Notes: generated by a model from the sequence alone, not told the origin. A stretch of DNA of 64,000 bases from Gammaproteobacteria bacterium (GCA_965222155.1 CBDCTH010000012.1:3445456-3509455); one strand, 5' to 3'. Shown: positions 28,573 through 56,851, numbered from the stretch's first letter. Numbers and translations: made by a program.

Positions 28573-30213
28573 CCCGGATATCTCACCAATAATTGGAAAA
28601 GGGTCTCAATCTCTGGTATAATGTGAGTGTTGTCAGTAACTTACATAAAAGCGGAGACGAGACCCTATGACGACACAGTGTACTTCAACCCAACTGGCAT
28701 TTCAATCGTTTGGTCGCCGTAACGTGGTGGGGCGATTTGACGGCGGTCGGCTGACCTCAGACGCTGGCGGCCTGCTGTTACGCGCAGTGGACCAGCAGCT
28801 CGACGTGTTGCCTCGGCTGGCGTCGTGTTTCCTTGGCCCTCGGTGTGCGGGGATGATTGCTCACTCGGTGGCTGAGTTGCTGGCGCAACGCATGTATGCG
28901 CTGGCCTTGGGCTATGAGGCTATCAATGACCATGATGCGTTGCGTGCGGACAGTTTGTTGGCGCGGTTGGTGGGCAAGCCGGCCCTGACCGGGGCACAAC
29001 GCCGCCGGGTGCGTGACCGGCGTTATCCGTTGGCGGGGTCAAGCACCTTGAACCGGTTGGCGTTGGGGACACCGGCGCACGCGCCCGGTCATCGTTACCA
29101 GAAGGTCGTGGCGCTCCCTGAGGAGTTGGACCGGTTGTTGGTCGACGGGTGCCTGGAAGCGCAGCCACATCCGCCGCCGGTGTTGTGGCTGGATTTGGAT
29201 GCGACCGATGACCCGTTGCACGGTCATCAGGAGGGCCGGTTCGTTCACGGCTACTATAAGTCATACTGTTATCTGCCCTTATATATTTTCTGCGGGGCGC
29301 TTCGGGCTTTTGCCGGGAGGAGATAATGGGGGGGTGCGAGGCCACTGGCGTGGGTTACCTGCTGGGCCTGGCGCGCACTCTGCGCGTGGCGGGGTTGATT
29401 GACAAGGCCTTGCGCAAGTCCCGGCGCCGTTACCTGCAAACCGGGACGGCGTCCCGGCGGTTTCGTGAGTTGCGTTATCGCACCCGACAACGTTGGACGC
29501 GCAGCCGGCGGGTGGTGGCCAAGGCGGAGTACCTGGCCAAGGGCGCCAACCCGCGTTTCGTGGTCACCAACCTGGCTACACAGACCGCTGGCGCCCAGTC
29601 CTTGTATGAGGCCCTGTACTGTGCCCGGGGTGACATGGAAAACCGCATCAAGGAGCAGCAACTGGGGCTGTTTGCCGACCGCACCAGCACGGCGACGCTA
29701 CGCGCCAACCAGTTACGCCTGTATTTATCCTCATTTGCCTACCTGTTGATGCACGGCCTGCGACGCCTGGGACGGGCCGGGACACGCTGGGCCAGGGCGC
29801 AAGGTACCACCCTCCGGGCCAAGCTGTTGAAGTTGGCCGCCGCCGTGCGCATAACTGCACGCAAGGTGTGGGTCTCCTTCGCCGCCGGCTACCCGTATCA
29901 GAACGAGTTCGCCGCCGTGCTGGCCCATCTTCAGCAGGGCCCGGCCCGGGCGCCCCCCGGATAGACCGCCGGCCCGGGCCGGCCCGACTGTATGCGGCGC
30001 TGACAACCGCGTCGGCGACCACACTTGTCCTGATGACCATACCGGGCCGGACACACCGGGTCAACACCCGGTTGAACACGGGGTTTCCCGGTTCAACGGC
30101 TCACCCAGCCGCCCGGGCGCAAGTCAGCTGGCCTTGACACTACCCCGAAAGGAGTAAATCGCCGGAATTGAGCCTGTTTGACACCTCATAGTAAGATCGG
30201 TGAGATATCCGGG
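28573..30213 (+). mobile_element. IS1380-family element with frameshifted and deleted transposase (28667..29964)
   Basis: TIR CCCGGATATCTCACC, CTAG on both sides; FDGGRLTSDAG, LDLDATDDPLHGHQEG, YCARGDMENRIKE motifs. Confidence 0.9.
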
Positions 30214-31334: not shown

Positions 31335-31744
31335 AGGCGGCTGCAAGTCCCCGGCTGCAGTGGATGAGTGATTCTGATTGTAGGACAGCCCTTGAGACAG
31401 AGTCAATGCGGAGGATGTCCTGATGGCAATGCACCAGTCGTTTAATTGAGAAGCAGCCGGCAAAGTGCCACCGACTAAGTTTGAAAAATGTACTATAATT
31501 AGTTTGACAGGTCATGCAAAGCGGCATGACTCAAACTAACGGGGCTCCAGAATTCCTGGGGCGGTTCAGAAAGCCGCTATATTTTAATACTACCAGCACA
31601 ATAGGCGGAAAACTGCATTTCATGGCCTCGCTGAAATTGATAAAATACATGATTAGTGCTTTAACCACCCCGGTAAGTGTCTGGCCATCCTTGGCGTGCT
31701 TGCGCCTTGTCAGTAAAACGTCATTTTTCCACACCGCTTTTACA

Positions 31745-33391
31745 ATGTTCTGGCTAGGATGTCTGTTTTTACTAACATCATGCACGTTTGCATACAAGGA
31801 GGAAGGGGCGATTGATTATCGTAAAACCGAGGTCTCAACTACAGATCTGAGTAAATTCACTGTTAAGACCGATAGTATAGAAACAAATATACAGGGAGAA
31901 CCAATTCGTATTGCCAAGTTGCAACGTAAGAATTTACCGCAAGATAACAGGGAAGTAACATTTTCAGAAAATGACAACATATGCATACGGCTTACATCAG
32001 CTTATATAAAAGACTATTCAGAAGGCCCCCTAAGCTGGGTTAATGATGCAGTTGGGGGGCAAATCAGGTCCAAGGGAGAAATTGCCGTTGTAGTTAACGC
32101 TTTTGCAGTCAAAGATTCTGTTGCTTTTGACTTCTCCGACAAAGGAGTTAATAAAGGAAAGGTGGTTTTTTTCTCTGATGATATCGTTGCAGGCCAGTTC
32201 ATGAATTTTAATAATATGCCAATTTACGGCCCCTCCTCTGAAGGAAAGAATGGCATAGGTCTTGAAATCTGGATTATGGAGCTGGATATTTCCGACGTTC
32301 TAACAGGAAATTTGCTCCGGGACATAGCCTCATATGGAACAATACCTCTTCCCTTTTCGTCTGTTGGGAACGTAATTCTGGAATCTATGGGTAAAAGCCT
32401 GTTAAGTTCCACTAATACTCACGATACAAATTTTCTTTACAGAGTACTGCTAGAGCCCAAGAAAGCAGCCATGCTTCCAAACGCCCCCCTAGAAGTCGGC
32501 CATTACGTATTCATTCGAGTTCAGGAAGATATTGGAGACATTCTGAAAAATATCAAGAACCTTGATTTTAAGAAAATTATCAAAGGGGGTAGAATTGATG
32601 ATATAAACTGGTCAGAACTGGTGCTTGATGAAAACAGTGGACGATTATATAAAAAGGTTAAAATGAACGGAGTAAATGCTCAGTGTGATTGTGATGATAA
32701 TGGTTATGATTATATTGAGTACACAGATCGAAATTATTTGGTTATAAGTGTTGATAAAGATACTTCTGGACGTGATTTATCTGTAGATAATAAGTTGTAT
32801 GAAGCTTTTCTCGGCTCTGTGAAAGAATCGGCAAATACCAATCAATTCGTTGCGACAATCATAATGGAATTAAAAATGCGTGAGATTATGACTTTGTTCG
32901 ACCAGTACTTTGAAGCAGTGAGCAAAGTTAATTCCGCAGAGGATGTCGTGAGAAAAGAAGATGATGCGATCAAGAAAGCAGCGGCAGAGGCTACGGCTAG
33001 GAAAGCTAAGGCTGATGCCACCTCCAAGAAAACGGATATGATTAATGGCTTTACATATTTTTGGGATGATTACATCAAACCTTCATTGGAAAAGCATTAT
33101 TACAAGTCGGCGTCACTCAACAGTAACGATCTCACAGAACGGGATCTAAGCCAAGCTGCTAGGCAATTTATGGCTAAAATCAGCCAAGGAGTTGGTAAAG
33201 GAATAAACGATATTGACATTTGTGTGTCTGACCTGTTCACGTGGTTTTCAAGTGGAGTCAAAGAAACAAATCGGGAGGTCGCTAAAGATAGAATAAACGA
33301 AATAAGGCAGAAGATAATTTCTTTGATCAACGGTAATGGGTGCCCGACTTCTACACCGCCGACTACAACCCCATCCGAGCAACAAACGTGA
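31745..33391 (+). CDS. Hypothetical probable lipoprotein
   Basis: Long AT-rich ORF; lipobox-like LLTSC; start uncertain (frame open from 31514). Confidence 0.55.
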   Translation: MFWLGCLFLLTSCTFAYKEEGAIDYRKTEVSTTDLSKFTVKTDSIETNIQGEPIRIAKLQRKNLPQDNREVTFSENDNICIRLTSAYIKDYSEGPLSWVNDAVGGQIRSKGEIAVVVNAFAVKDSVAFDFSDKGVNKGKVVFFSDDIVAGQFMNFNNMPIYGPSSEGKNGIGLEIWIMELDISDVLTGNLLRDIASYGTIPLPFSSVGNVILESMGKSLLSSTNTHDTNFLYRVLLEPKKAAMLPNAPLEVGHYVFIRVQEDIGDILKNIKNLDFKKIIKGGRIDDINWSELVLDENSGRLYKKVKMNGVNAQCDCDDNGYDYIEYTDRNYLVISVDKDTSGRDLSVDNKLYEAFLGSVKESANTNQFVATIIMELKMREIMTLFDQYFEAVSKVNSAEDVVRKEDDAIKKAAAEATARKAKADATSKKTDMINGFTYFWDDYIKPSLEKHYYKSASLNSNDLTERDLSQAARQFMAKISQGVGKGINDIDICVSDLFTWFSSGVKETNREVAKDRINEIRQKIISLINGNGCPTSTPPTTTPSEQQT

Positions 33392-33442
33392 AGCGCTTTA
33401 GCGATGCCCTATTAGGTATTTCCTACCCCATTCATACTGGCA

Positions 33443-33641
33443 CAGGCCGATTTGCAACGCTATTTCCAGGTCTCGCCTCCCTCAGTCCACCGCATGTTGA
33501 CCCAATTGGAGGACAAGGGACTCATTCGAAAACAGCTTGGTGTCGCACGTAGCCTCTCATTGGTACTGCCTGTCCATCAACTGCCACAACTTGACTGAAT
33601 TTGACTCGTCAATCGATCAGAATTAAATTGAAACGGTACTA
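33443..33641 (+). mobile_element. Remnant LexA/MarR-like winged-helix 3' end with probable IS630-type terminus
   Basis: ADLQRYFQVSPPSVHRMLTQLEDKGLIRKQLGVARSLSL...LPQLD*, followed by TTGAAACGGTACTA. Confidence 0.5.
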
Positions 33642-33715
33642 GTCTTGCCGGGTATTGATGACGTTACATACCCTTCTGACGGAGTTGAAACGGTAGCGAG
33701 TAGACTGGAGGTTTC

Positions 33716-34555
33716 TTGATGCCCCAACTACCCCATTGGCTGGAACAGTTACGCCGCACCGAAATCATACAGCGCGTAAAGAACGATCCTCGTTCCGGGC
33801 CAGAACAATACCTTGGAGTCAGTAGCTCGGATGCGACGCACGAAGTTGCCGGGTGGGGTCAGGCGGACTTCGACAAACCTTGGCGTCATCTGTCGCCTGA
33901 TGACCGTGTCCTTCTTTACGCTTACTTCTTTCAGCTTGGGCACTTGGAAGAACTTGTCGAGGCGTTTGGTATGCTCTTTGCCAAAACCCGTCCTGCGGAA
34001 CAACCCATTGTCGTCGATTTAGGTTGTGGACCGTTCACAGGCGGACTTGCTTTTGCCAGCGCACTTGGCTCCGAACAGCAATTTGATTATATCGGCGTGG
34101 ACCGATCTGAGGCTATGCGCAGACTAGGCGAACGGCTCGCAATCGCCGCCGAACATCACAATACAGCACTTCAAATTGGTCGCCAATGGGCATCCGACAT
34201 CTCCTCGATTTCCTGGCATCAACCACTGACTTGGCATCCGGTATTTGTCATTGTGTCGTACCTTCTGGCTAGCCCGACGGTGGACGTGGTGGAGCTTATC
34301 AAGGAGTTGGAACAACTGCTCTCAAAATTTGGCCGAGGGTCAGTCACAGTTTTGTACACAAATTCGAAACGAGACGAAGCCAATAAAAACTTTCCGGATT
34401 TTTGCAACGCATTGCGTGATGCAGATTTCAAAACACTTAAAGATGACATTGGAACAATTGCGGTGGAAAGAATGCACGGTACTCAGGGCCGCGACTTACG
34501 ATATGCTCTGTTCCATCGTCCTGCACAAAATACTCTTTCTCTTGGAGATAACTGA
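33716..34555 (+). CDS. Class I SAM-dependent methyltransferase-fold protein
   Basis: VVDLGCGPFTG motif I and YIGVDRS motif II; GGAGG RBS. Confidence 0.7.
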   Translation: MMPQLPHWLEQLRRTEIIQRVKNDPRSGPEQYLGVSSSDATHEVAGWGQADFDKPWRHLSPDDRVLLYAYFFQLGHLEELVEAFGMLFAKTRPAEQPIVVDLGCGPFTGGLAFASALGSEQQFDYIGVDRSEAMRRLGERLAIAAEHHNTALQIGRQWASDISSISWHQPLTWHPVFVIVSYLLASPTVDVVELIKELEQLLSKFGRGSVTVLYTNSKRDEANKNFPDFCNALRDADFKTLKDDIGTIAVERMHGTQGRDLRYALFHRPAQNTLSLGDN

Positions 34556-34556
34556 A

Positions 34557-35645
34557 GTGCGGCTACCAACTTGGGATGAAATCGTCAGCGAGGAGGACCA
34601 GCGCGATGTGTTGGAATATCCGCTTGATCAGCACCTATTCGTTGTGGGGCCACCTGGTTCCGGCAAGACAGTCCTTGCCTTGCACAGGGCGCGGATGATG
34701 GTGGATACAGGGATGCCAGTTAAACTTGTCACATACAATCGCATGCTCAGGCGTTTGCTGGAGCTGTTGGGGGGCGGAAGTATAGATGTTCAGACAATGC
34801 ATCAATTTGCATGGTACGACTACAAGGACCGGATGGGTGAAGAGCCACCACAGTATGTGGAATATAATAATGATTGGGAAACCATGCTTGCGCGCGTCAA
34901 AGACAACCATAAGTGCCACAACCAATTTCACATGATTGTGGATGAGGGACAAGACCTTCACCAGGAATTTTTCAGGTATGCTTCGTATGTCTCGAACGCC
35001 ATCACCGTATTTGCAGATGACGATCAAGCACTCAGTACGGATCGCTCAACGCTTGAGGACATCAAAGCCGCAGCCCACTTGAATGATCCGATTATTCTCA
35101 AAAAAAATCATCGGAATAGTCCGGAGATTGCTACGGTGGTGGAACATTTCCATAGTGGTCGTCTCCCCGCCGCATCCATCGTCCGCTCCTCAACGGGAGA
35201 ACTTCCTCGCCTGGTCAAAACAAAAAACCTTGAATCTACAGCCACGTTGGTGTCGAATTGGTATAATACCCGAGGCGGTAGTATCGGCGTTATTTTCAAT
35301 CGAAACGAGACCGGTAATGAGTTGCACACCATGCTCCGCAAGAAACTGCCCGACAAGCGCGTTGACATGTACACAAATGATCAAAAAAACGAGGGTAGTA
35401 TCGACATGCTATCTTCGGGTGTGACCATACTCAACAAAGAATCCGTGAAAGGCCAGGAATTTGCCACAGTGTTTATTTTGGAACTGGAATCCTTCATCCC
35501 ATGCAATACCCCTGTAAATAAACCCGCAATGTACATGATGTGTGCCCGTGCTTGTGATAATCTTTTTCTTATTTACGGCCCCGATTCACTTTCGATACAG
35601 GCAGAGAGAGCATTGCCGGGGGCTGATGCTTTGGAGCGGTCATGA
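34557..35645 (+). CDS. Short SF1 (UvrD-like) helicase
   Basis: GPPGSGKT, VDEGQD, FADDDQ, NHRN, KGQEF, CARA; GTG start 1 bp after the upstream stop. Confidence 0.8.
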   Translation: MRLPTWDEIVSEEDQRDVLEYPLDQHLFVVGPPGSGKTVLALHRARMMVDTGMPVKLVTYNRMLRRLLELLGGGSIDVQTMHQFAWYDYKDRMGEEPPQYVEYNNDWETMLARVKDNHKCHNQFHMIVDEGQDLHQEFFRYASYVSNAITVFADDDQALSTDRSTLEDIKAAAHLNDPIILKKNHRNSPEIATVVEHFHSGRLPAASIVRSSTGELPRLVKTKNLESTATLVSNWYNTRGGSIGVIFNRNETGNELHTMLRKKLPDKRVDMYTNDQKNEGSIDMLSSGVTILNKESVKGQEFATVFILELESFIPCNTPVNKPAMYMMCARACDNLFLIYGPDSLSIQAERALPGADALERS

Positions 35646-37822
35646 ATCCTCCTGAACCCCAGATGGCAATGCGCTTTTCCGAGGTTCGTGAACCTGAATC
35701 CCGCTGGTTGGGACTGGCCACTGATAATCGGCGTCTTTTTGATGCGTTGCAGGATGGTTGGCTACGACCCCAGTCTTCGGACGGGCAGATGGTAGGAATC
35801 GGAACGTACGTTCGGGATGGGAGCCCGGTCGATGCGGGGCATCCAATACACGTCCAGGTAAGACTAGATCCCGCGAAGTTGCCTAATCTTGATATTGACG
35901 TCTTGCGCAACAAAAGTTGGCGGACATCTTGTATTGGCGCGCTTGAGCCAACAGATCAGGCGTTGTACTGGCCGGGTGCGCTACCGACTTTCGCCATCTC
36001 GAAACTATTAGTATCGACCGAAGAAGAGCGTGCGCGTTTCACCGGCATGGCCAGGTATGTCTCGAATCTGATACTACCCAAAGAGTTGGTCAGAGTCGGT
36101 GCTAAACCCGGGGACTGTTTCGATGTGGAGGTTTCCCCACCCAAGGCAACGGTGGGTATTGGCATTCCAAGCGATATGGATGCAATCCACGGCGCTATTG
36201 CTATGGCTGTTTGGGGAGTTCCGCGAATTGATCCCTGGCTGGATATTCTCACCACCAGCCTTGACCCTGAACAATCGGGGCTGGAAGATCTGGCCGCGAA
36301 AATGGACGCCTCATGGTGGCGGTTTCCACCCTGGATGCGGCTTCAGGGTGAGGTCAATTCAGACAGCCTGCACGATCGCCTCTGGTTGGCTGCCGTGGAA
36401 GTGTTTCGAAGTCAAGTAAGTGGCGAGCGTATCGATCCCCGTGAACTCTCAACACGAATACACGCTAGGGCGTCACAAAGCTGTCCTGCAAAAGGTCGGG
36501 ACGAGCAGGCGAGAGAGTGGTTGGAGACCACAAACGGTATTCTACGCGCCGAGTCGGTCATTCAACTCCGGGATTGGCGGAGTTGCCCTGTTGGAATAGC
36601 CATTCAATTGGTGTTGGCTCGTCCAGAACCAACGAACTTCAAGACATGGTTTAAGGATATGCCGCAACTCCCCCCGGCAATTGCCTGGTCTGCAGCAGTT
36701 CTATGCGGTCTTTTGCATGGATACAGGCGTCTCGACTGCCAATTCCGTGGGACGGTGCTGCAACGCGAACTTCTATCAATTCAGGCATTGCGCCTGTCTG
36801 TCGCGGGGAAACGCGATCTTTGTTGGCCATCTGTCACCGCCAGGAAACCCGAATGGAGAAGGGCTGCCGGCCGCTTCGTGTTGGCTTGGGACGGTAATGA
36901 TTTTTCTACAAAGCCGGAGAATGCGCGCGGTCAATGGTTTGGCGCGGATTTCAAGAGAACAAAAGTTCAGGAAGAGGCCCATAAACTCGCAACAAATTTG
37001 AATTGGCCCTGTCTTTCCCAGCAGATCATTCTGACAGACGTACTACTACCCTATTCTGGTCCAGGCACTATGCGTTTACCCACCAATAAGGATACGCTAA
37101 TCGAGGTTGAAGGGACTGTACGGTTCCAGTTGCCGGAAAATTTGGAAATCGAGAAAAAACTTAATGTTGATCGGTTCCGCCACTTCATCGCCACGGAGGC
37201 AGGACCACTGTCGAATCCGCCATCCTCCTCGCTAGCAGCCGAGACGCAACCCCTGCAATCAGCTATTCCTGGCTTGATATATATCCGAGATTATCTGAGC
37301 GAGGGCGAAGAAGATGAACTTGTTAAACTCATTGATAGTCACCCATGGGACACTCAACTGAAACGACGCGTTCAGCACTATGGGTGGCGTTATGCTTACA
37401 AAGCCCGTCAAGTTGACCCAGCCATGCGTCTCGGCCCCCTGCCGGATTGGGCTGACAAACTCGCCGGACGCCTTGTTTCAGAAGGGCTTGTACCGCAACT
37501 TCCCGATCAGGTTATTGTCAATGAGTATATTAGAGAACAGGGCATCAGTGCCCATGTTGATAGTAACAGCTTTGCTGATCATATCGTCACGATCAGTCTA
37601 TTGGAATCGTGGGGGATGGTGTTTCGCAAAAAAGGGTCAAAAAACAAAGTCGAACAGCTACTTGAGCGACGCAGTGCGGCAATCATGAGTGGCGAAGCCC
37701 GGTATGACTGGAAACATGGAATACCAATGCGGAAGAGCGAGCGTAACAAGTCCGGCGAGGGACGCAGGAACCGAGAGCGTCGCATTTCACTTACCTTTCG
37801 CAAGGTGAAATACTCCGTGTAG
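35642..37822 (+). CDS. Large protein: ~540-aa unknown N-terminus plus C-terminal AlkB-type 2OG-Fe(II) dioxygenase
   Basis: RRVQHYGWRY, IVNEY..QGISAHVD, WKHGI, RRISLTFR; ATGA overlap with the helicase. Confidence 0.8.
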   Translation: MNPPEPQMAMRFSEVREPESRWLGLATDNRRLFDALQDGWLRPQSSDGQMVGIGTYVRDGSPVDAGHPIHVQVRLDPAKLPNLDIDVLRNKSWRTSCIGALEPTDQALYWPGALPTFAISKLLVSTEEERARFTGMARYVSNLILPKELVRVGAKPGDCFDVEVSPPKATVGIGIPSDMDAIHGAIAMAVWGVPRIDPWLDILTTSLDPEQSGLEDLAAKMDASWWRFPPWMRLQGEVNSDSLHDRLWLAAVEVFRSQVSGERIDPRELSTRIHARASQSCPAKGRDEQAREWLETTNGILRAESVIQLRDWRSCPVGIAIQLVLARPEPTNFKTWFKDMPQLPPAIAWSAAVLCGLLHGYRRLDCQFRGTVLQRELLSIQALRLSVAGKRDLCWPSVTARKPEWRRAAGRFVLAWDGNDFSTKPENARGQWFGADFKRTKVQEEAHKLATNLNWPCLSQQIILTDVLLPYSGPGTMRLPTNKDTLIEVEGTVRFQLPENLEIEKKLNVDRFRHFIATEAGPLSNPPSSSLAAETQPLQSAIPGLIYIRDYLSEGEEDELVKLIDSHPWDTQLKRRVQHYGWRYAYKARQVDPAMRLGPLPDWADKLAGRLVSEGLVPQLPDQVIVNEYIREQGISAHVDSNSFADHIVTISLLESWGMVFRKKGSKNKVEQLLERRSAAIMSGEARYDWKHGIPMRKSERNKSGEGRRNRERRISLTFRKVKYSV

Positions 37823-37896: not shown

Positions 37897-38152
37897 CATC
37901 CAGGGTCAGACCAGTATAAAAACTATAACTGTTTGATTTTAATTGATAATCCGTCTGTACATGACCTTTTCCAATCGTTAGAACACGCGTTTTATTACGA
38001 AAAAAGACATTGTAAGAAATGTCACTTGCTTAACATGATATTTTCCGCCGTGAAAACCCTGTTCTAATCCTTAAAATAGCGCGCTATTGAGAATTTTATC
38101 CTCTATAATCATAGAGTTATATTGGTCCGACCCACTCGTATCCCCTCGTATG
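37897..38152 (+). repeat. Junction element copy R5 (full, right end stuttered)
   Basis: Ends CCCACTCGTAT-CCCCTCGTATG. Confidence 0.95.
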
Positions 38153-38541: not shown

Positions 38542-38839
38542 CATCCAGGGTCAGACCAGTATAAAAAGTATAACTGTTTGATTTTAATTGATAATCCGTC
38601 TGTACATGACCTTATCCAATCGTTAGAACACGCGTTTTATTACAAAAAAAGACATTGTAAGAAATGTCACTTGCTTAACATGATATTTTCCGCCGTGAAA
38701 ACCCTGTTCTAATCCTTATCATAGGGTTATAATGGTCCGACTCCCTCGTATGTACCTCTAAGGGGGGTGGCTTTGTAAAACGCTTGTTGAATACACCTGC
38801 TCTCTAACTCAAATTTTGTTGATTTTAGTTTTATTAAAA
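38542..38839 (+). repeat. Junction element copy R6 (~35-bp internal deletion) plus 87-bp extension
   Basis: Sequence identity; shares the AGATCCG left flank and CTTATCCAA variant with R8. Confidence 0.93.
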
Positions 38840-38901: not shown

Positions 38902-39525
38902 ATGGGAAAACACACGCACAGCACTGATAGCAATATCCTCCGGCGGATTCATTCCCGTAAGCGGGGTTGGGTCTTTACGCCTGACAGTTTCACAGACCTC
39001 GGTACCCGGCAGGCAATTGATCTCGCGCTGATGGGGCATCGGAAGACTGGCCTCATCCGAAAACTGGCCCGGGGGTTGTATGATTACCCGAAAATCGATC
39101 CTCAGCTTGGTCCTTTACAGCCATCTACGGATGACATTGCAAAAGCCTTGGCAGGTCGTGATGCTGCCCGTTTACAACCCTCCGGGGCTTATGCGGCTAA
39201 TCTCCTTGGACTTTCTACACAAGTGCCAATGAAAGTCGTGTATTTGACGGATGGCCGGGCGCGGACAGTAAAGGTTGGCAAGCGAGAGATCGTCCTGAAA
39301 CGAACCACCCCCCGCAATATGGCTACCGCCGGGAGCAGCAGCGGGTCGGTGATCCAGGCCCTGCGCCACTTGGGCCGGAAAAACGTCGACCAACAAGTCA
39401 TTGCACAGCTTGATCGCCGTCTTGATGACGATGTTCGCAAGCAACTGATGAAAGATATTTGGTATGCCCCGGCTTGGATCGCCGATATCATTCGCATACT
39501 GGCTGCCCAGGAAAGTACAGTATGA
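38902..39525 (+). CDS. AbiEi-like (DUF6088-type) antitoxin
   Basis: [40 protein letters not shown]. Confidence 0.85.
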
Positions 39526-39886
39526 GAGAATTTATTGCAATGCCGAAAGAACGTCGCCGGCTGGCCTGTACGGAGGCCGGCGCACAACTGAACCTGTCTG
39601 AGATTGCTGTCGAAAAGGACTTCTGGGTTTGCTGGACCCTGCGCAAATTGTTCGAGCTACCCAAATGGGGTGAACACCTGACGTTCAAGGGTGGTACATC
39701 ATTGTCCAAGTGTTGGAAGCTAATTGAACGTTTTTCCGAAGATATCGATATCGTCATCGAACGGGGCGCCTTGGGTTTTAGTGGAGAGAATGCCGTGGAA
39801 CAGGCACCCAGCAAGACACAGACAGAAAAGCGCCTCAAGGCACTGAAAGTAGCTTGCCAGCAATGTATCAGCGACAGGAGGATTCA
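39522..39886 (+). pseudogene. AbiEii nucleotidyltransferase toxin, 3' truncated by R7
   Basis: [25 protein letters not shown]; frame runs into the repeat after ~120 codons. Confidence 0.85.
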
Positions 39887-40132
39887 CATCCAGGGTCAGA
39901 CCAGCATAAAAAGTATAACTGTTTGATTTTAATTGATAATCCGTCTGTACATGACCTTTTCCAATCGTTAGAACACGCGTTTTATTACGAAAAAAGACAC
40001 TGTAAGAAATGTCACTTGCTTAACATGATATTTTCCGCCGTGAAAACCCTGTTCTAATCCTTAAAACAGCGCGCTATTGAGAATTTTATCCTCTATAATC
40101 ATAGAGTTATATTGGTCCGACCCCCTCGTATG
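39887..40132 (+). repeat. Junction element copy R7 (full)
   Basis: Sequence identity. Confidence 0.95.
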
Positions 40133-40293
40133 CCGGTGCAGTTTTCGTCGATCAGATCGCGGTATTGCTGATTGGCCGCCGTAGTGACTGCGTAAAACTT
40201 GCGAGCGGGGCGAGTGTGGGTATAGTCGGCGAAGAGCCGGTCGTGGAATTGAGCTTCTCGTTGCAGGCGGGTATCTTTATCAAAATCAATCAC
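40133..40293 (-). pseudogene. 5' fragment of a gene (possibly a methyltransferase) cut by R7
   Basis: MIDFDKDTRLQREAQFHDRLF... overlaps the upstream stop and runs into the repeat. Confidence 0.45.
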
Positions 40294-41062
40294 CGGGTTC
40301 TCTATCAGAATCAGGCGCTACATAGATGTTTTGTTTTTGGAGGACTTTTATGATTGTCTGCTGGTAATCTTTTGATGAACTGAGTTTTGGGTCTTGAAAA
40401 GCTAATAAACCAGCTTCTACGTCTTTATTCCGCAAGCCAGGTAATACGCCGGATATGGCCAAAGTGCGTGGCTCAGGATGTTGTAATGCCAGAAAGGTTA
40501 CCGTTATTAATTCATTGCGGTTTTTATTTTGATTAACCTGCCAATGTTCTGCTACACCTAATTCGCGATATTGGGCCTGCTTACCTTTATCGATGGATGT
40601 AATCCCGACTTCTACTACCAGATCCGGGGCGTGGTTAAGAACAAAGTTATCGCCAGCCTGTACACTATGCGCTCTAGCAAGTCGATACGCGCGGGCTTTT
40701 GGCCCGAGGTAATAACAGCAATCAGGTTCCAGGCCCGTATTCTCTGGATCGTTTGAACGGCGCCATCGATTTGCACGCAAAGCACTTCTTGATATAGAAA
40801 ATTCGTCTACTACGGCTTTGATAAGGGTATCTATGTCTTCTGCGAGTTGTTCGTGTGTTGCGCTGGGTGACATCAACATAACCAGGCCACGTACTGGATC
40901 TAATATTACCCGTCGAAAGACCTTCTCAAGCGGTAAACGAGCCAGGTTTAGCACCAGATCTTTATTCGCCAGGAAAGCGACGTACCCAGAATCCAATGAG
41001 TTTTTTCTGTGGACAAGTTCTGCTAAGTCGTCAACATTAATGGTTGTAGTTGTTAAATTCAT
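40286..41062 (-). CDS. Uma2-family endonuclease
   Basis: MSPSATHE, EPDCCYY, PDLVVEV, YRELGVAEHW. Confidence 0.85.
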   Translation of the reverse strand: MNLTTTTINVDDLAELVHRKNSLDSGYVAFLANKDLVLNLARLPLEKVFRRVILDPVRGLVMLMSPSATHEQLAEDIDTLIKAVVDEFSISRSALRANRWRRSNDPENTGLEPDCCYYLGPKARAYRLARAHSVQAGDNFVLNHAPDLVVEVGITSIDKGKQAQYRELGVAEHWQVNQNKNRNELITVTFLALQHPEPRTLAISGVLPGLRNKDVEAGLLAFQDPKLSSSKDYQQTIIKVLQKQNIYVAPDSDREPGD

Positions 41063-41191
41063 GGTGGTAATTCCTTAGTTGTAATGTGTACATCTTATTT
41101 GATGTAATTGTATAAAGTTGCCCTGGAGATTTTATAACGTTCTGTAATGGTTTTGATGGGGATGGCCGGGTTCTGTTTTAAAGTTTTGATC

Positions 41192-41638
41192 TCAGTGATT
41201 TGCGCGGGAGTCAGGGCTTGTGGTCTGCCGCCGCAGCGGCCGCGCGCGGGCTGCTTTGAGGCCGGCCAGGGTGCGTTCGCGGATCAGTTCACGTTCGTAT
41301 TCTGCCAGCGCGTCGACGACGTGGAACATGAGTTTGCCGGCAGGCGTGGTGGTATCGATATTTTCTTTCAGGATTTTGAAATGGATGGCTCTGTTTTCCA
41401 GATCCTGGGGTATTTTGATGAGGTGGCTGAGACTGCGACCTAACCGGTCCAGGCGCCAGACGATGAGGATATCGGCGGCTCTGAGTACTTTCAGACACTG
41501 GTTAAGTTGCGGCCGATCGCGGTCTTTCCCACGGGTAACATCCGTGTAGATCTGTTCGCACTGGGCGTTTTGCAGGGCGTCATGCTGTAATGCCAGGGAT
41601 TGATCACCGGTGGATACCCGCGCATAACCTATTTTCAT
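41192..41638 (-). pseudogene. Serine resolvase/invertase, C-terminal HTH lost
   Basis: MKIGYARVST, VWRLDRLGRS, AEYERELIRERTLAGLKAARAR, then divergence. Confidence 0.8.
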
Positions 41639-41770
41639 TTTCTGCCCGTTTTTTGTACGTTGATAAATATACGGGTTGTTAGACAAATGATCAAGCAACA
41701 ACAGCAACATCAGTATTTTCCAATATGAAATGAGCCTGACATAATCTGTGTTTCTGCTCATTGCGCCCAT

Positions 41771-41850
41771 CCCCCTGCTCAACTCCATACAGAGCTTGCC
41801 CCTGCGGTTGTAAGCAGGGGGGCAGGCTCTGTATGGAGTTGAGCAGGGGG
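41771..41850. repeat. 80-bp palindromic REP/MITE-like hairpin
   Basis: CCCCCTGCTCAACTCCATACAGAGC ... GCTCTGTATGGAGTTGAGCAGGGGG. Confidence 0.85.
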
Positions 41851-43083
41851 GTGGCCTTTGAGGTAGCCGGTGACAAACAGAGCCGTTATGACTGGCTACG
41901 TCGGACACTGGTTAAAGTCAACACTTCAGACTGTGGTAAAGCGAACAAGGGGGTGCTGATGCGTTACCTGATGCAGGTCAGCGGGTATTCCCGAGCGCAG
42001 GTGAAGCGGCTGATTAAACACTACCGGGAGAGCGGGCAACTGGCGCCGCGGCAGCGCACGGTATGTGGCTTTGCCCGGCGCTATACGCAGACGGATAGCC
42101 GCCTGCTGGCGGCCCTGGATGAACGCCATAACACGCCCAACGGGTTGACCCTGAAGAAGCTCTGCGAACGCGCGTATGAGGTCTTCGGTCAGGCCGAGTA
42201 TGCGCGCCTGGCCGGTATCTCGGTGTCCCACCTGTACAACCTGCGCCAATCGCAGACCTACCGGCGTCAGCGGCACACGGTGGAGAAGACCCGTCCGGTC
42301 AACCGTAACATCGGCGAACGACGTAAGCCGCAGAGTGACGGCCAACCGGGTACTATTCGCATCGATACCGTGCACCAGGGCGATTTGGACGGGGAAAAAG
42401 GCGTCTATCCTATCAATGCGGGGTAGATGAGGTGACCCGGTTCGAGGTCGTGGTCAGTGTCGAGCGCATCAGCGAGGTCTATCTCATCCCGGCCCTTCAA
42501 TACCTGCTGGAGAGCGTCCCGTTCGTGGTCCTGGGGTTCCATGCCGACAACGGCTTGGAGTACATCAACCACCGGGTCGCCCGGCTGCTGGAGAAACTGC
42601 GTATCGAGTTCACCAAGTCCCGCGCCCGGCACAGCAACGACAACGCCCTGGTGGAATGCAAGAACGGCCATGTCGTGCGCAAGCTCCTCGGCCATGCCCA
42701 TATCCCGTAGCGCTGGGCCGGCCTGCTCAATGCCTTCCATCGCCAGCACCTCAACCCGTACGTCAACTATCACCGGCCCTGCCTGTTCCCGCACACCGTC
42801 ACCGACAAGACCGGGAAACAACGAAAATGCTATCCCTACGCGTCCCTGATGACCCCGTATGAGAAACTCAAATCCCTCACCGATGCAAAGACGTACTTGA
42901 AACCGGGCGTAAGCTTTGACAGACTGGACACCATCGCTTACCGGATCAGCGACAACGCGGCGGCCGATGCCTTGCAACAGGCGCGCCGACAACTCTTTAC
43001 GACCATTTATGAACAGGCGCAGAAACGGGCTTGAGATGAGTCAGAATCACTCTCTCTTCAGGCTCAGTCCGAATTGGAAAACA
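41851..43083 (+). mobile_element. IS481/ISNCY-like DDE transposase pseudogene (5' truncated, frameshift, internal stop)
   Basis: RIDTVHQGDLDG, FHADNGLEYIN, FTKSRARHSNDNALVECKNG, TPYEKLKSL. Confidence 0.75.
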
Positions 43084-43085
43084 CT

Positions 43086-43278
43086 CCAGGTGCGCGGCAG
43101 TTACTGGACCGACCCGGGTTACAAGTTGAAGTACGACAAGCTGTACATCGAAACTATGAGTCCCTGGCTGGATATCAAACTGCTCTTCCTCTCCGTCTGG
43201 GTCGCTATCAAGCGCGTGCTCAACGGTTCGGATGTCTCCGTCATCAAAGAGGGTTCCGGGGAGAATCAAGCAAAATGA
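43086..43278 (+). pseudogene. Sugar transferase copy 3, 3' fragment
   Basis: QVRGSYWTDPGYKLKYDKLYIETMSPWLD. Confidence 0.85.
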
Positions 43279-43439
43279 GAAGATACAGAATGGCAAGCTC
43301 GCCATACTATGCAAATGCCATTAAGCGCCGGGGAAGATCAAACCGAATGAGAAGACGCAGGGCAGTCGGCCACTGTGCTCAATGTGCGCCATGATACTGA
43401 GCGCAAACACCACACTGAAGCAAGAGGAGAAAGACACCG

Positions 43440-44297
43440 GTGACTGAGCAGAAGCAGGACCGACAAGTCAGCGTTTCAATAGTCATCCTGACTTGGAATT
43501 CCGAGCGGCATATTATGGCCTGTCTGGCCTCCCTGGAGCAGGGCTTGCGCGCGTTCAGTTCCGAAGTCATCGTGGTTGACAACGGTTCGCGGGACTCAAG
43601 CTGCGCCGTCATCGAAAACAGCTGGCCCGGCGTGCGCCTGGTGCGTAACGCTGAAAACCGCGGCGTTGCCGCGGCCCGTAACCAGGGTATCCGCCTGGCC
43701 GGGGGGGACTATGTACTGGTCCTGGATGATGATACGGTCGTGCAGGCCGGTGCGCTTGACTGCCTGGCGCGTTATATGGAGGGCCGGCCCGAGGTCGGGC
43801 TGTGCGGGCCGAGACTGACCGGCGCCGACGGGGCATTGCAGTTGTCATGCCGGCAGTTTCCAACCTTGACGGATAAATTAGCCCGGCGTCTGCCCCCCTT
43901 CGCGGGCAGGAGGATGACTCAAACGGTAGAAATGGCGGACTGGGACCACCAGACGGTGCGCGCGGTGGATTACGTGATTGGCGCCTGCCAGATGATACGC
44001 CGGCGCGCCTTGCAGGAAGTGGGTCTGTTTGATGAACGCATCTTTTACGGCCCGGAGGATATCGACATGTGCCTGCGGCTGCGACAGGCCGGCTGGCAGG
44101 TCGTGTACCACCCCGAGGCTGTGGTTATGCACAATGAGCGCCGGCTGACCCGATCGCTACGCTCCGGCCTGACCTGGAAACACCTGTGGGGACTCGGCTA
44201 TTTTTTCCGTAAGCATGGCTACCTGCTGTCCCGCCGGCGGTTGTACGCGCAACTCCCCGAAGTCATGCGCCGGTCCGGCCCGGAGGTGGCGAATTGA
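43440..44297 (+). CDS. GT2 glycosyltransferase, copy 3
   Basis: Paralog of 9534..10460. Confidence 0.88.
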   Translation: MTEQKQDRQVSVSIVILTWNSERHIMACLASLEQGLRAFSSEVIVVDNGSRDSSCAVIENSWPGVRLVRNAENRGVAAARNQGIRLAGGDYVLVLDDDTVVQAGALDCLARYMEGRPEVGLCGPRLTGADGALQLSCRQFPTLTDKLARRLPPFAGRRMTQTVEMADWDHQTVRAVDYVIGACQMIRRRALQEVGLFDERIFYGPEDIDMCLRLRQAGWQVVYHPEAVVMHNERRLTRSLRSGLTWKHLWGLGYFFRKHGYLLSRRRLYAQLPEVMRRSGPEVAN

Positions 44298-44336
44298 ATC
44301 TGCCCGGTCACGCGACAAAGTTAACGGCATATTGTT

Positions 44337-45089
44337 ATGGATAAAGTATCCGTTGTCATACCCAGCTACAACTCCTCAGCGTACATCACGCGCGCCGTAG
44401 AATCTGCCCTGAACCAGACTTACGATAACCTGGAAGTGATCGTTTCCGATGACGCCTCCACCGACGACACCTGTGCCCTGGTGCGCAAGACAGACGACCC
44501 ACGCGTCCGGTTGCTGGAACATACGGAGAAAAGCAGCGCCGCCTCCGTGCGGAATTCAGCCATAGACGCGGCGACCGGGCGCTATATCGCGTTTCTCGAT
44601 TCAGACGATTACTGGTTGCCCGATAAACTGACTGTACAAATCAGCAAAATGCAGGCGGCTTCAAAGAGCTTCTCCTATACCAGCTTTATAGCCAAATCGA
44701 AAACGGGGGAGGTATTGATTGACGTGCAGGAACAAGTGGATTACAAGACCCTGTTGAAAGGAAATATAATCGGCGCCTCAACAGTCGTTTATGATGCCGG
44801 CGCGCTGGGCAAGATGTACATGCCGTTGTTGCCCATGACGGAAGATTACGCGACCTGGCTGAACATACTGAGGCAGTGCGGTTCAGGGCTGGGGATATGC
44901 GAACCGCTGACGTATTATACGATACGCAGCGGTTCACTGTCTTCGCGGTTTGTGGTGGCTGTGTATTTCAATTACCAGATGTATAGAAAAACGCAAGGTT
45001 TGTCGCCAGCCATGGCACTGTATTACCTGTCCCGGAATTCGCTGAGGGCGCTACGGAAACGAGCGCAGTATTTGACGAGTAATTTATAA
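44337..45089 (+). CDS. GT2 glycosyltransferase (TuaG-like)
   Basis: Paralog of 13522..14292. Confidence 0.88.
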   Translation: MDKVSVVIPSYNSSAYITRAVESALNQTYDNLEVIVSDDASTDDTCALVRKTDDPRVRLLEHTEKSSAASVRNSAIDAATGRYIAFLDSDDYWLPDKLTVQISKMQAASKSFSYTSFIAKSKTGEVLIDVQEQVDYKTLLKGNIIGASTVVYDAGALGKMYMPLLPMTEDYATWLNILRQCGSGLGICEPLTYYTIRSGSLSSRFVVAVYFNYQMYRKTQGLSPAMALYYLSRNSLRALRKRAQYLTSNL

Positions 45090-45186
45090 ATGTTACGTCG
45101 GACGGGCTTCCCCGAATGACGCGCCGGGTTTCCGGTCTCGATTCCGTGGCGCGCACTGAGCGATGATGTAACGACATACCAGCAAA

Positions 45187-46374
45187 ATGTTAAACGTCCT
45201 CCACGTTACGGCCAGCATGTCGCCCACCTGGACCGGGCCTGCCTTTGCCGTGGCGGAACTCACTTCGGAGCTGTCCCGGCAAGGCGTGGGCTGCGAGATT
45301 GTCACGACCCGTGGCTACCGGGTGGGCAGCAACCCCATGTCCCCTCCCGGCGTGCCCGTGCACAGTTTCGACGCGGGGCTGCCGGCGCGCCTCTGGACCG
45401 CTTATGCGAAAGAATTGTCCCGCTTTATCGATGACAGGGCGGCCGACTATGACCTCATCCACGTCCACGAGGTATGGCATTACCCCGGCTACGTCGCTTT
45501 GCGCGCCGCCGTAAGACATCAACTCCCCTGCGTGCTGAGCCTTCACGGCGGACTCAGCCAGTGGGGCCTGCGGCAGAAGGCGCTGAAGAAACGCATCTAC
45601 CGGTTTGTCCTGCAGGACCGGATGTTGCGCAATGCCGGTGTGTTGCATGCGATTACCCACGCCGAACGGGAACAGTTCGCCCGGTTGGGCTTCGCAACCC
45701 CGACGGTGGTCATCCCGAACGGGGTAGTACCCGCCTCGTTCGAGGCGTTGCCGGAACCGGCTGCGCTGACGCGGCGCTTTCCGCCTTTGGCGGGAAAACG
45801 CGTTGTCCTGTTTTTGGGCCGGCTGCATCCTGTCAAGGGCCTGGACGTGCTGGTGCGCAGTTTCGCCACCATTGCCCGGCGTTTTGAAGACGCCGCGTTA
45901 CTGCTCGCGGGGCCGGACAAGTTCGGAACCCGGCAATACCTGGAATCTGTCCTGCGTGAACTCGGCCTGCTGGACCGGGCAGTGTTTACCGGCATGCTGA
46001 CGGGCAGGGACAAGCTGGCAGCCCTGAGTTGTGCCGAGCTCCTGGTGCTGTCGTCCCATACCGAGGCGCTGGGGATAGCCGCGCTGGAAGCGATGGCGGC
46101 GCGCCTGCCCGTGGTGGTCAGCGAAGGCTGCGGGTTCCCGGAAGTCGCCGAGCGCGGCGCCGGCCTGGTCGTGAAAACCGACGAGACGGCCATCGCCGAA
46201 GCGGTATGCAGGTTGCTGGCGGATGCCCCGCTTCGGCACCGTATGGGAGAGCAGGGGCGCAAACTGGTATGTGAAAGTTATACCTGGCAGATAACCGCGA
46301 ATCAGATAACCAATCTATATAAGAGTCTTATGGCAGGCAAGCCGGTAAAAGGCAACTATGACTGTGACCCCTAA
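45187..46374 (+). CDS. GT4 glycosyltransferase
   Basis: FLGRLHPVKG, EALGIAALEAMAARLPVV. Confidence 0.9.
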   Translation: MLNVLHVTASMSPTWTGPAFAVAELTSELSRQGVGCEIVTTRGYRVGSNPMSPPGVPVHSFDAGLPARLWTAYAKELSRFIDDRAADYDLIHVHEVWHYPGYVALRAAVRHQLPCVLSLHGGLSQWGLRQKALKKRIYRFVLQDRMLRNAGVLHAITHAEREQFARLGFATPTVVIPNGVVPASFEALPEPAALTRRFPPLAGKRVVLFLGRLHPVKGLDVLVRSFATIARRFEDAALLLAGPDKFGTRQYLESVLRELGLLDRAVFTGMLTGRDKLAALSCAELLVLSSHTEALGIAALEAMAARLPVVVSEGCGFPEVAERGAGLVVKTDETAIAEAVCRLLADAPLRHRMGEQGRKLVCESYTWQITANQITNLYKSLMAGKPVKGNYDCDP

Positions 46375-46428
46375 TCCCGCATTAGAGATTTGAAACGGTC
46401 ATTCAAGGCGCATTCTGTCTGTTTGCCA

Positions 46429-46455
46429 AATCAATCGAGTCTGACCCCATTGATT
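46429..46455. repeat. Solo REP-like end AATCAATCGAGTCTGACCCCATTGATT
   Basis: Contains TCTGACCCC like the junction-element ends; lies where polysaccharide copy 3 stops. Confidence 0.45.
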
Positions 46456-46689
46456 TCGGCCGCAGCAACTCAGCCACACACACCAAGCCGCCGCGCCCGG
46501 TCAATAAATCGTTGGTATTTGCGATTCTGTACGGTACGATTTGCATAAGCCTTGTCTGTTGCACCCAGCGGGTGATAGTCATTGATCGTACAACCTATTA
46601 TACAGGCAAGGCTTTTTTGATTCCTGCACTTTCTAATGCGGGATTAGGGGGATGGATAGGTATTGACTTATGGAGCGAGTTGTGCGTTA

Positions 46690-47987
46690 GGGAACCTCTA
46701 ATAATTGACGATTTCCGTTACTATCGCTATCTATGCGGGCAAGCCGGGTTCTTTTACATATAAATGTATTCGGCCAGTGGCGAAATGACCCCGTGCTCGC
46801 CTTCATCGACCCCTTAATCGGGCCGTTTTATTGCCTTCGGGTGTCGGTTTGACACCAGCCGGGCGTTGTCTCCGTCAAGCAGGCGCGCTGACCCCTTCCA
46901 GGTAACACAGTCGTCGCATGTTATACACCAGGTTCAGCATCCCAATGGCCAACTCACTGCGCGCCAGCCCGATACAGCGTATCAGCTTGGCCCGGGTCGC
47001 ACACTGCGCCCCGAACACGTGCTCCACCCGCACCCGCACCTTGGCCCGCGTGCGGTTGCCCTGCTGCGCCCACGCCGTCAACGGCTTGTTGCGGCGCCCC
47101 TTGCGCTGAATGTGGCTGCGGTAGCGCTGGGCCTGCAAGCGTTCCTCCTGCTCCCTGGAACGGTAGGCGCGGTCCGCCCATAACGCCTTGCTGCTGTTGT
47201 GCTCATCCAACAACTCATCGAGCAGTTGGGAATCATGCACAGTCGCCGCGCTCACCGCATACGTGCGTATCAGCTTGTGCGCATTGTCCACGTTCACGTG
47301 ATTCTTGTACCCGTAATGACTCCTGCCCCGCTGCTTCGTCCAACGTGCCTCCACGTCCTTCTGCCGCCGCTTGGATTTGGCTGCCTCATCGTCCCAGCCC
47401 GCAGGTGCCTCCCCCGCCTTAAGCGCCGCATTCTCCTCGCGCGTGTTGCGCTGCACCGGCACCGGCACCAGGGACGCATCCACCCACTGCCCCTTGCGCG
47501 CCCGATACCCCAAGTCTGCCAACTGCTCGGCAAAGCGCGTAAATAACGTATCCATCAGGCCCAACCTCACCAACTTCTCCCGAAACGCCCAGAAGGTCTT
47601 CGCAGCCGGTGCCCGACGCACATTATCCAACCCCATAAACCGCTGAAAACTGCGCCGGTCTTCAAGCTGATATTCCAACTGCTCATCACTCAACCCGTAC
47701 AAATGCTGTAACACCAACCCCTTGAACAGCAGCACCTCATCCCGACGCGGCGCACCCGCCTTGCTCTTGCGGGTCGTGGGACGGATACGCACCAATAGCG
47801 GACGAAATGCCTCCCAGTCCACTACCTCACCCAACCGCACCAGAGGATCCTTCAGTTTATTCAAGCGGGTGTCTTGCAAGTCAAACAACGAACCGAATAT
47901 GTCTTGTGTCTTCATGAAACCACCTTGAGGAAAGAGTTGAAATAAGTCACCGCTATTATATCATCTGACCGAATAAATAGAGGTTCC
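46690..47987 (-). mobile_element. IS5-family element; transposase 46875..47915 apparently intact
   Basis: TIR GGAACCTCTA; VDASLV, YGYKNH, ADRAY, RVRVEHVFG. Confidence 0.9.
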
Positions 47988-53021: not shown

Positions 53022-53049
53022 GGCGATTATCGTAAATCCAAATCCAGCT

Positions 53050-53553: not shown

Positions 53554-53746
53554 AAGTTGTATGCGGTTCAGGCGCGCCGGTTGGGATGAAAGAATCTGAG
53601 TGGGAAGATCCCTTTGTAAAAGGTGGTCCTCAGGACCTGCTTGATCAGCTTATTTCGTCTGGTTTTCCATGGGGAATGTTGGGCAAAGAAAAACGGTTGG
53701 TTTTTTATGAACCCGCTGAAGCGTCTTGCTGGTGCAATTAAATTAA

Positions 53747-56801: not shown

Positions 56802-56851
56802 AGAACTCCTATTGTTTAACGTGGGGCCGTCAGCTATACTTGTCATACCCC

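Follow-up and report, generated by a model that had tools for sequence, protein, structure and literature searches.

A 64,000-nucleotide stretch of DNA from a Gammaproteobacteria bacterium (GCA_965222155.1, CBDCTH010000012.1:3445456-3509455), hereafter the window, carries three adjacent genes encoding a methyltransferase (MT), a short superfamily 1 (SF1) helicase (HEL), and a fusion protein that ends in an AlkB-type oxygenase domain (ALKB). As far as we searched, these genes constitute a real, widespread, and undescribed cassette that combines known enzyme folds with one new domain. We hypothesize that the cassette has a role in defence. Its genes, and the parts of the ALKB protein, lie at the following window positions:

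33719..34555, + strand: MT, 278 amino acids, ATG start, TGA stop at 34553-34555.
34557..35645, + strand: HEL, 362 amino acids, GTG start, TGA stop at 35643-35645.
35642..37822, + strand: ALKB fusion protein, 726 amino acids, ATG start, TAG stop at 37820-37822.
35705..36832, + strand: N-module, ALKB residues ~22-397, a tryptophan-rich domain pair.
36839..37246, + strand: Module B, ALKB residues ~400-535, alpha/beta by secondary structure, between the N-module and the oxygenase.
37268..37804, + strand: AlkB-type Fe(II)/2-oxoglutarate (2OG) oxygenase domain, ALKB residues 543-721, ALKBH8/ALKBH4/6/7 clade.

MT, HEL, and ALKB are intact, translationally coupled genes. A first-pass annotation of the window, made from its sequence, had described three unbroken open reading frames (ORFs) with a 1-bp gap and an ATGA overlap, and all of this was confirmed by an ORF scan and by the sequence: the MT stop and the HEL start are separated by 1 nucleotide, the ALKB start overlaps the HEL stop as ATGA, and the catalytic motifs of MT, HEL, and the AlkB domain are all intact. 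The ATG of MT, which is preceded by an in-frame TTG at 33716, has a GGAGG sequence 7 nucleotides on its 5' side. Alignment with 22 homologues validated the GTG start of HEL: every one of them starts at this codon, opening with M(R/K/Q)LP or an equivalent.

Related loci show that the three genes form one unit. In GTDB, represented by one genome per species, we identified 496 related stretches and analyzed the best 80 with tblastn. The arrangement MT-HEL-ALKB, with MT and HEL directly upstream and each at least 80% covered, was present in 61 of these 80 loci, and the order HEL-ALKB-MT in 5. The remaining loci comprised six with partial or split partners, four cut by a contig end, and four without partners (L005, L006, L052, and L061). 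The trio is kept in 66 of the 80 related loci and is therefore not a chance juxtaposition. Consistent with joint inheritance, the identities of MT, HEL, and ALKB to the window's proteins co-varied across the 61 loci (r = 0.88-0.95, for sequences that are related and not independent), HEL and ALKB are fused in proteins P0038 (1108 amino acids) and P0094 of locus L012 (1114 amino acids), and MT and HEL share a single 669-amino-acid frame in L071. In six of the six places where a profile search detected a copy of MT, the gene either adjoined HEL and ALKB or was incomplete. Co-conservation of the trio had been set out as a point to check, and the loci and fusions show that it is one co-inherited unit. 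When the 1131 ORFs in the 80 loci were clustered all-versus-all, every other family was confined to 5 loci or fewer; since no further family recurs beside the trio, the cassette consists of exactly these three genes. We considered a 625-amino-acid ORF (31514-33391) on the same strand as MT and 325 nucleotides upstream of it as a fourth component and rejected it, as it had 0 tblastn matches in the 80 loci. This ORF had no Pfam, PADLOC, or PHROGs match and is unrelated to ALKB.

The oxygenase domain lies at the C terminus of a protein that is conserved along its entire 726 residues. A search of a 5.8-billion-protein set at E ≤ 0.001 yielded 371 homologues of ALKB, and the 120 of them that were listed are 591-1114 amino acids long and 48-95% identical to it. 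The Pfam family 2OG-FeII_Oxy_2 (PF13532) matched residues 582-720 with 69.3 bits (cut-off 31.2), and the complete AlkB set claimed at first pass is present: all 19 of 19 homologues retain the iron ligands H638, D640 (as H638-x-D640), and H692 and the 2OG-binding arginines R714 and R720. In a profile search of the PDB, human ALKBH8 (3thp) was the best match (E 2.3e-33, 25-28% identity), with further matches to C. elegans NMAD-1 (3e-21), S. pombe Ofd2, ALKBH7, ALKBH6, and ALKBH2; ALKBH8 likewise occupied Foldseek ranks 1-3. E. coli AlkB was absent among the 30 PDB sequence matches of ALKB, and the NCBIfam equivalog for AlkB (NF011930) scored 19.9 bits against a cut-off of 267. These comparisons place the domain closest to eukaryotic ALKBH8 and not to E. 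coli AlkB, and the oxygenase falls outside the E. coli AlkB and ALKBH2/3 repair clades. The whole fusion protein had 0 matches in PADLOC v2 and none in PHROGs. Module B, which precedes the oxygenase, is specific to AlkB fusions: the profile reaches residue 521 only in AlkB-bearing proteins.

The N-module is beta-rich at residues 22-125 and helical at 179-384. ALKB residues 1-540 matched nothing in Pfam, NCBIfam, PADLOC, PHROGs, or the PDB sequences, in agreement with the ~540 amino acids before the AlkB domain that had been left unassigned in the first reading. An AlphaFold2 model of ALKB built with 19 sequences had a mean predicted local distance difference test (pLDDT) score of 64.9, with residues 125-198 and 361-405 below 50, and Foldseek searches of PDB and BFVD returned AlkB-domain matches only. 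A protein-atlas search with residues 1-535 matched only unnamed clusters at 0.81-0.82, within the range of shuffled proteins, and we assign no fold to the N-terminal region. We count the N-module as one new domain that, judged by its sequence, appears to belong to no known family.

Other partners of the N-module are informative. When a profile built on the N-terminal region was run against 1.84 billion representatives, 445 proteins matched at E ≤ 0.001, mostly AlkB fusions of 720-780 amino acids. The module stands alone in proteins of ~400 amino acids (P0240, P0253, P0256, P0266, and P0271); a word search for homologues of P0240 returned P0240 alone. In the giant protein P0213 (1213 amino acids), DUF4326 (203-277) and NADAR (325-466) are followed by the N-module (504-861), and in P0229 (1963 amino acids) the N-module (540-905) precedes a SLOG/YAcAr domain (1543-1605). 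In a Vicinamibacterales metagenome-assembled genome (MAG), an N-module-AlkB gene closes a coupled five-gene operon (L005, 1068-10253) that opens with an Eco57I-like methylase (1032 amino acids) and a UvrD-like helicase (463 amino acids, 23-30% identical to HEL over the longer matches), continuing with DarT (9e-19) and an ADP-ribosylglycohydrolase with a helix-turn-helix domain (2.5e-37). Here DarT, a known DNA-base writer toxin, occupies the usual place of MT. The same glycohydrolase lies immediately upstream of a normal MT-HEL-ALKB trio in L009, a locus related to L005. These associations show that the N-module travels with enzymes that remove modifications from nucleic-acid bases.

Several candidates for relatives or contexts of the N-module were examined and discarded. 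A 548-amino-acid protein of the G022 operon was not a split N-module (hhalign probability 0.2%). A metagenome contig (L088, 5949-13738) was considered as context for the N-module-NADAR protein; it lacks the N-module and illustrates the polyvalent-protein type only. On this contig, giant polyvalent-type proteins, one with SLOG/YAcAr and one with Macro-DprA/SLOG-DUF4326-NADAR, adjoin a DUF7146-Toprim protein and a serine recombinase, and a C-terminal domain of ~340 amino acids is repeated in both large ORFs. Giant-virus proteins in BFVD join an AlkB-like fold to NADAR or an SNF2 helicase (ranks 5 and 8). The methyltransferase-AlkB-helicase replicases of plant RNA viruses were rejected as homologues, with fold-level AlkB matches only (root-mean-square deviation >20 Å), and we treat their likeness to the cassette as convergence in domain content and not as homology.

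MT is a class I S-adenosylmethionine (SAM)-dependent methyltransferase of an unnamed family. Its motif I reads DLGCGPFTGG, and the DLGCGP reported at first pass proved to be well conserved, with D100, G102, G104, and P105 invariant in 22 of 22 homologues, as is the acidic residue D128 within YIGVDRS. The AlphaFold2 model (pLDDT 90.6) has a class I Rossmann methyltransferase fold. Foldseek returned >500 matches at E ≤ 0.001; those listed were all methyltransferases, of generic Rossmann type (NNMT, METTL17, BioC, METTL5/6, and VCP-KMT). Every Pfam methyltransferase model scored under its cut-off, the best at 19.7 bits, and the top sub-threshold match was to Methyltransf_16, which comprises lysine methyltransferases. 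The best PDB sequence matches were Tmt1 and METTL17 at ~1e-4. MT is not detectably Trm9-like, having no Methyltransf_11 match in Pfam and no Trm9 match among PDB sequences. PADLOC returned C3a159, a "methyl transferase" described as a type III CRISPR-associated candidate (1.7e-10), and PHROGs no match. DNA N6-adenine and N4-cytosine amino-methyltransferases carry a (D/N/S)PP(Y/F) catalytic motif IV. MT lacks this motif and has no match to N6_Mtase, MethyltransfD12, or similar Pfam families; in the alignment, the strand-4 region at the position of motif IV reads SYLLASP, so that MT does not qualify as a canonical DNA N6A/N4C enzyme. More broadly, its sequence argues against a canonical DNA amino- or C5-methyltransferase. 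A predicted complex of MT with the N-terminal region of ALKB scored 0.01.

HEL is a minimal SF1 (UvrD/Rep-like) ATPase/helicase core. The UvrD-like helicase of ~362 amino acids that had been proposed was borne out: the Walker A motif (GPPGSGKT) and every other SF1 motif, namely Ia, II (VDEGQD), III, IV (NHRN), V, and VI, are intact on a bare 1A/2A core without insertions of the size of the accessory 1B and 2B domains. Pfam matches were to AAA_19 (1.5e-10, 41.8 bits against 25.1) and UvrD-helicase (5.8e-5, 23.3 bits against 23). In the PDB profile search B. subtilis HelD ranked best (1.2e-21), followed by UvrD (9e-11) and GajB (1e-5), and HEL failed the NCBIfam equivalog cut-offs for HelD (31.7/419), HelR (27.5/750), and UvrD (17.3/1144). 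Its PADLOC matches were C3a187, another type III CRISPR-associated candidate (2.5e-13), and the GajB models, which matched only in part (best 1.4e-7 over 84 residues). Both C3a159 and C3a187 originate in a survey of accessory genes of type III CRISPR.

The cassette is rare and sporadic, is horizontally mobile between distant bacterial phyla, and is accessory. Sources of the 80 loci include Gammaproteobacteria (Pseudomonadales, Pseudomonas, and Lysobacter), Burkholderiales, and Alphaproteobacteria; the others are Acidobacteriota (many of them Vicinamibacterales), Gemmatimonadota, Nitrospira, Gemmataceae, Bdellovibrionales, Myxococcota, and Entotheonella. According to the genome records, cultured and non-pathogenic carriers include Pseudomonas peradeniyensis BW13M1, Paraburkholderia sp. 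SIMBA_030, Lysobacter enzymogenes 521, Enhygromyxa salina SWB007, and Rugamonas aquatica FT29W. Within the window's genus, 3 of 23 genomes (G000, G011, and G010) encode ALKB and the same three encode MT; the G010 cassette is decayed: MT and HEL have lost internal segments, and ALKB carries a ~1.1-kb interruption. Among 300 further genomes, sampled from the rest of the phylum, none matched the N-terminal profile. In a Pseudomonadales sample, 2 of 401 genomes (0.5%) encode MT, and each time HEL and ALKB follow. One of these two genomes, a Pseudomonadales MAG (G339), carries two complete, divergent MT-HEL-ALKB cassettes (L103, 4852-8905, and L017), the proteins of which are 51/49/41% and 55/55/45% identical to those of the window.

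Comparison with described systems supported the first-pass statement that no named system contains this trio. No PADLOC-DB v2.0.0 system matched, mad2 and mad8 being matched only in part, and full-text literature searches, with newer defence catalogues outside their scope, found no description of it. At the level of superfamilies the components are an AlkB/2OG oxygenase, a class I methyltransferase, and an SF1 helicase; at the level of orthologues or systems, tests against E. coli AlkB, the ALKBH8 architecture, HelD/HelR/UvrD, Gabija, DarTG, MADS, and PADLOC v2 were all negative. ALKB shares with E. coli AlkB the superfamily (PF13532) and the Fe(II)/2OG ligand set; however, it is ~3.5 times as long, and its gene shares an operon with that of a methyltransferase. 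ALKBH8 has an N-terminal RNA recognition motif (RRM), a C-terminal zinc finger, and a fused Trm9-like methyltransferase. Like ALKBH8, the closest solved relative of its oxygenase domain, the cassette pairs an oxygenase with a SAM methyltransferase. By contrast, ALKB has no RRM by Pfam and ends 5 residues past the oxygenase fold, leaving no room for a C-terminal zinc finger; its methyltransferase partner is encoded separately and is not detectably Trm9-like, and the bacterial cassette, mobile and rare, adds a helicase and an N-terminal region of 520 amino acids. HEL has the same SF1 motif set as HelD/helicase IV, with B. subtilis HelD as its best solved match, yet it has 362 amino acids against 500-780. 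The first-pass annotation had cited Gabija as a system with an SF1 helicase among its core parts; HEL is nearer to HelD/helicase IV than to GajB in the PDB profile search, there is no GajA partner, and neither neighbouring gene product is GajA-like by Pfam or PADLOC.

A simpler form of the enzyme pairing occurs in the window's genus, in two genomes of which a weak methyltransferase-like gene (hhalign probability 81-89% against the MT profile) is immediately followed by a stand-alone ALKBH8-like AlkB. These two-gene pairs resemble the cassette in their combination of enzymes. Unlike them, the cassette has a helicase between the two genes and the 520-amino-acid N-terminal region on its oxygenase, and the methyltransferases are weakly related. 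In the same genus, an operon on the minus strand of L085 (4309-11687) opens with a 548-amino-acid protein of no assigned function and a 790-amino-acid subtilase and continues with a weak methyltransferase-like protein, a stand-alone ALKBH8-like AlkB (226 amino acids, 54% identical to the window's AlkB domain), and a DUF3604 protein.

The cassette of this window is embedded in an island of defence and mobile-element genes. Defence-like genes encode an AbiLi-like ATPase (1.2e-88), a HEC-04-like ATPase (2.1e-44), and a PD-T4-6-like kinase (5.4e-40). At 38902-39926 lie an intact AbiEi antitoxin-like gene (PADLOC 1e-68) and, next to it, a truncated AbiEii toxin-like ORF whose match covers just the first 105 of the 309 positions of the model; the AbiEi/AbiEii pair is therefore a remnant. 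Other island genes are Uma2, a resolvase, a Mu-type transposase, a split DDE transposase, and ParA. The DDE_Tnp_1_4 transposase, at 28667-29964, is divided between two adjacent ORFs (model positions 4-177 and 235-432) and is therefore probably frameshifted or inactivated. Elsewhere, we surveyed 120 of the 122 nearest-neighbour ORFs from 68 of the 80 loci, omitting 12 near-duplicate loci and the two longest ORFs, one of which is the defence-like Eco57I-like methylase of L008. PADLOC matches among these neighbours were scattered (type I/II methylases, Ppl, PDC-S01, AriA-like, and mad3-like). The earlier description of the operon as lying among defence genes holds for this window; in the other loci, the 120 neighbours include no recurrent family.

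The island contains further features. A repeat of ~250 nucleotides (up to 345) is present in at least 8 copies in the window at 97-99% identity, with one additional copy at 79-86%. Copies lie at 37897-38144, 38542-38789, and 39887-40134 and near 14523, 16769, 16863, 18667, and 62696; one abuts the truncated AbiEii, and one more is found on contig 4 of the same genome. The 248-nucleotide copy starting at 37897, 74 nucleotides past the ALKB stop, is the repeat that had been noted as R5 beyond the end of the operon. The repeat looks like a small non-coding mobile element. Just upstream of MT, at 33416-33598, is a 60-codon open frame without a start codon. Its translation resembles the C-terminal half of a winged-helix regulator, and it is probably what is left of a gene. 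A second copy of the island, rearranged and 98-99% identical, is present in the same assembly (L098; G000 contig 4, 98000-112000; compared with window 33627-34292, 40833-46690, and 51492-58593), and in it the MT frame breaks off after codon 191, where sequence found at window 51492 takes over. This copy arose by segmental duplication or belongs to a second strain that was co-assembled (the estimated contamination of the genome is 7.28%).

How might the cassette work? The reading we favour, at somewhat less than an even chance and by analogy, is that it is a DarTG-like reversible writer/eraser conflict module that uses methyl chemistry. MT would put growth- or replication-blocking methyl groups on the bases of single-stranded DNA or RNA, HEL would act as an SF1 motor that exposes or tracks single strands, and the AlkB domain, positioned by the N-module, would oxidatively strip the nucleic acid of the cell itself of these methyl groups. 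If infection, or the cassette being lost, upset this balance, methyl lesions would build up on the invader or the host, and the accumulated lesions would stop replication or translation. MT's substrate, the trigger, and an anti-phage effect are parts of this scheme that we infer. In the proposed logic, the cassette resembles DarT-DarG and DarT-NADAR in encoding a writer and an eraser together in a sporadic mobile operon. The N-module is fused elsewhere to NADAR, an eraser of DNA ADP-ribose, and L005 has DarT and an ADP-ribosylglycohydrolase between the helicase and the AlkB fusion. Unlike DarTG, the window's proteins have no DarT, macro, or NADAR domain by Pfam, the chemistry would be methylation and oxidative demethylation and not ADP-ribosylation, and an SF1 helicase is an obligatory third component.

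A writer/eraser pair had been suggested at first pass, and the NADAR fusion and the DarT-glycohydrolase operon lend that idea indirect support; the methyl-removing half of it fared less well, as the ALKBH8 clade leaves two chemistries. The best-known member of this clade hydroxylates a tRNA side chain, and the "eraser" activity is therefore one of two options. According to PDB entry titles and works cited in PMC4738411, this hydroxylation gives a stable product, with no erasure of a methyl group. Several other observations weigh against a conflict module. That MT is toxic we purely infer. The cassette contains no nuclease and no recognizable sensor, and the low-confidence model of the ALKB N-terminal region gives no DNA-binding role. 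Among the 120 neighbours, no Pfam family occurs more than twice (25 families listed), and many of the listed families are housekeeping (TGT, a gyrase/topo IV subunit, Leu-tRNA synthetase, and methionine synthase, among others). Finally, in L056 MT and HEL are open and ALKB is split into three ORFs, a pattern that a strict toxin/antidote pair should not tolerate; L056 lies on a MAG contig of 8x coverage and the split may be a sequencing error.

The ALKBH8 affinity underlies the main rival, which we consider rather unlikely, a two-step hypermodification in which MT would methylate a base or side chain of tRNA, another RNA, or DNA, HEL would open the structured substrate, and the AlkB domain would hydroxylate the methylated group to a stable product that could tune translation or mark self. 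ALKBH8 is the best match of the oxygenase by sequence (2.3e-33) and by fold (Foldseek rank 1). In animals, ALKBH8, which methylates and hydroxylates the tRNA wobble uridine, is joined to a methyltransferase, as works cited in PMC4738411 indicate, and the pairs of a methyltransferase-like gene and a stand-alone AlkB in two genomes of the window's genus fit either model. However, MT is not detectably Trm9-like, the sporadic, transferred, and often decaying distribution better suits an accessory conflict gene, and the links of the N-module to NADAR and DarT/ARH speak for the reversal of lesions. A conflict role of another kind, counter-defence by a mobile element, seems unlikely. Here the methylase-helicase would modify the element's own DNA against host restriction, in the manner of the DarB-type methylase-helicase dyads of phage P1, and the AlkB fusion would repair base damage inflicted by toxins of the host that modify nucleic acids. 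In its favour, giant proteins with DUF4326/NADAR or SLOG harbour the N-module, and a relative of one of them, on the L088 contig, combines Macro, DprA/SLOG, DUF4326, and NADAR beside a serine recombinase and a Toprim protein, resembling the "polyvalent proteins" of phages and conjugative elements (PMC5512222). Viral proteins in BFVD pair AlkB-like domains with NADAR or SNF2 helicases, and phages, according to PMC11825919, carry orphan NADAR-type antitoxins against DarTG1. Yet none of 8 IMG/VR matches, several of them on contigs labelled GVMAG or ~1 Mb long, extends past the AlkB domain into the N-terminal region, the 25 neighbour families listed include no integrase, transposase, or conjugation family, L088 has no N-module, and MT lacks the motif IV of DNA amino-methyltransferases.

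Plain alkylation repair, with the helicase unwinding duplex for an AlkB demethylase and MT unrelated or regulatory, is improbable. Human ASCC3 unwinds DNA for ALKBH3, a precedent for helicase-assisted repair of alkylation, and the HEL-ALKB fusions show a motor and an oxygenase acting together. This account nonetheless leaves the co-inheritance of MT in 66 of 80 loci and the MT-HEL fusion of L071 unexplained, the oxygenase lies outside the E. coli AlkB and ALKBH2/3 clades, and presence in only 0.5% of sampled Pseudomonadales would be unexpected of a repair pathway. We regard as very improbable a protein-directed pair, in which MT would methylate lysine or another protein residue and the oxygenase would demethylate or hydroxylate protein. 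The top, sub-threshold Pfam match of MT is Methyltransf_16, its Foldseek matches include the VCP lysine methyltransferase, and NMAD-1 (of the ALKBH4 clade), Ofd2, and ALKBH7 are among the closest oxygenases; protein substrates have been proposed for ALKBH4, ALKBH7, and Ofd2. The similarities of MT are generic and at the level of fold only, however, and the obligatory SF1 helicase partner and the gene fusions argue for a nucleic-acid substrate.

Returning to the DarTG-like reading, its fullest form holds that base methylation serves as a reversible poison from which an ALKBH8-clade oxygenase, aimed by the N-module, cleans the host, making the cassette the methyl counterpart of DarTG. We consider this form doubtful. 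If it is true, bacterial ALKBH8-like enzymes would for the first time have a role in physiology. The writer/eraser reading, if right, would add methylation and oxidative demethylation to the few reversible nucleic-acid modifications that serve as toxin/antidote pairs in bacterial immunity, of which ADP-ribosylation by DarTG is the established case, and would establish a new targeting domain common to two chemically different erasers, AlkB and NADAR. The L005 operon, a hybrid of ADP-ribosyl and AlkB components, is worth study in its own right. Either way, the cassette offers an experimental handle on bacterial ALKBH8-clade oxygenases, for which we found no described substrate and whose eukaryotic cousins modify tRNA, DNA, and proteins, and since several cultured carriers are named, the question can be tested at the bench.

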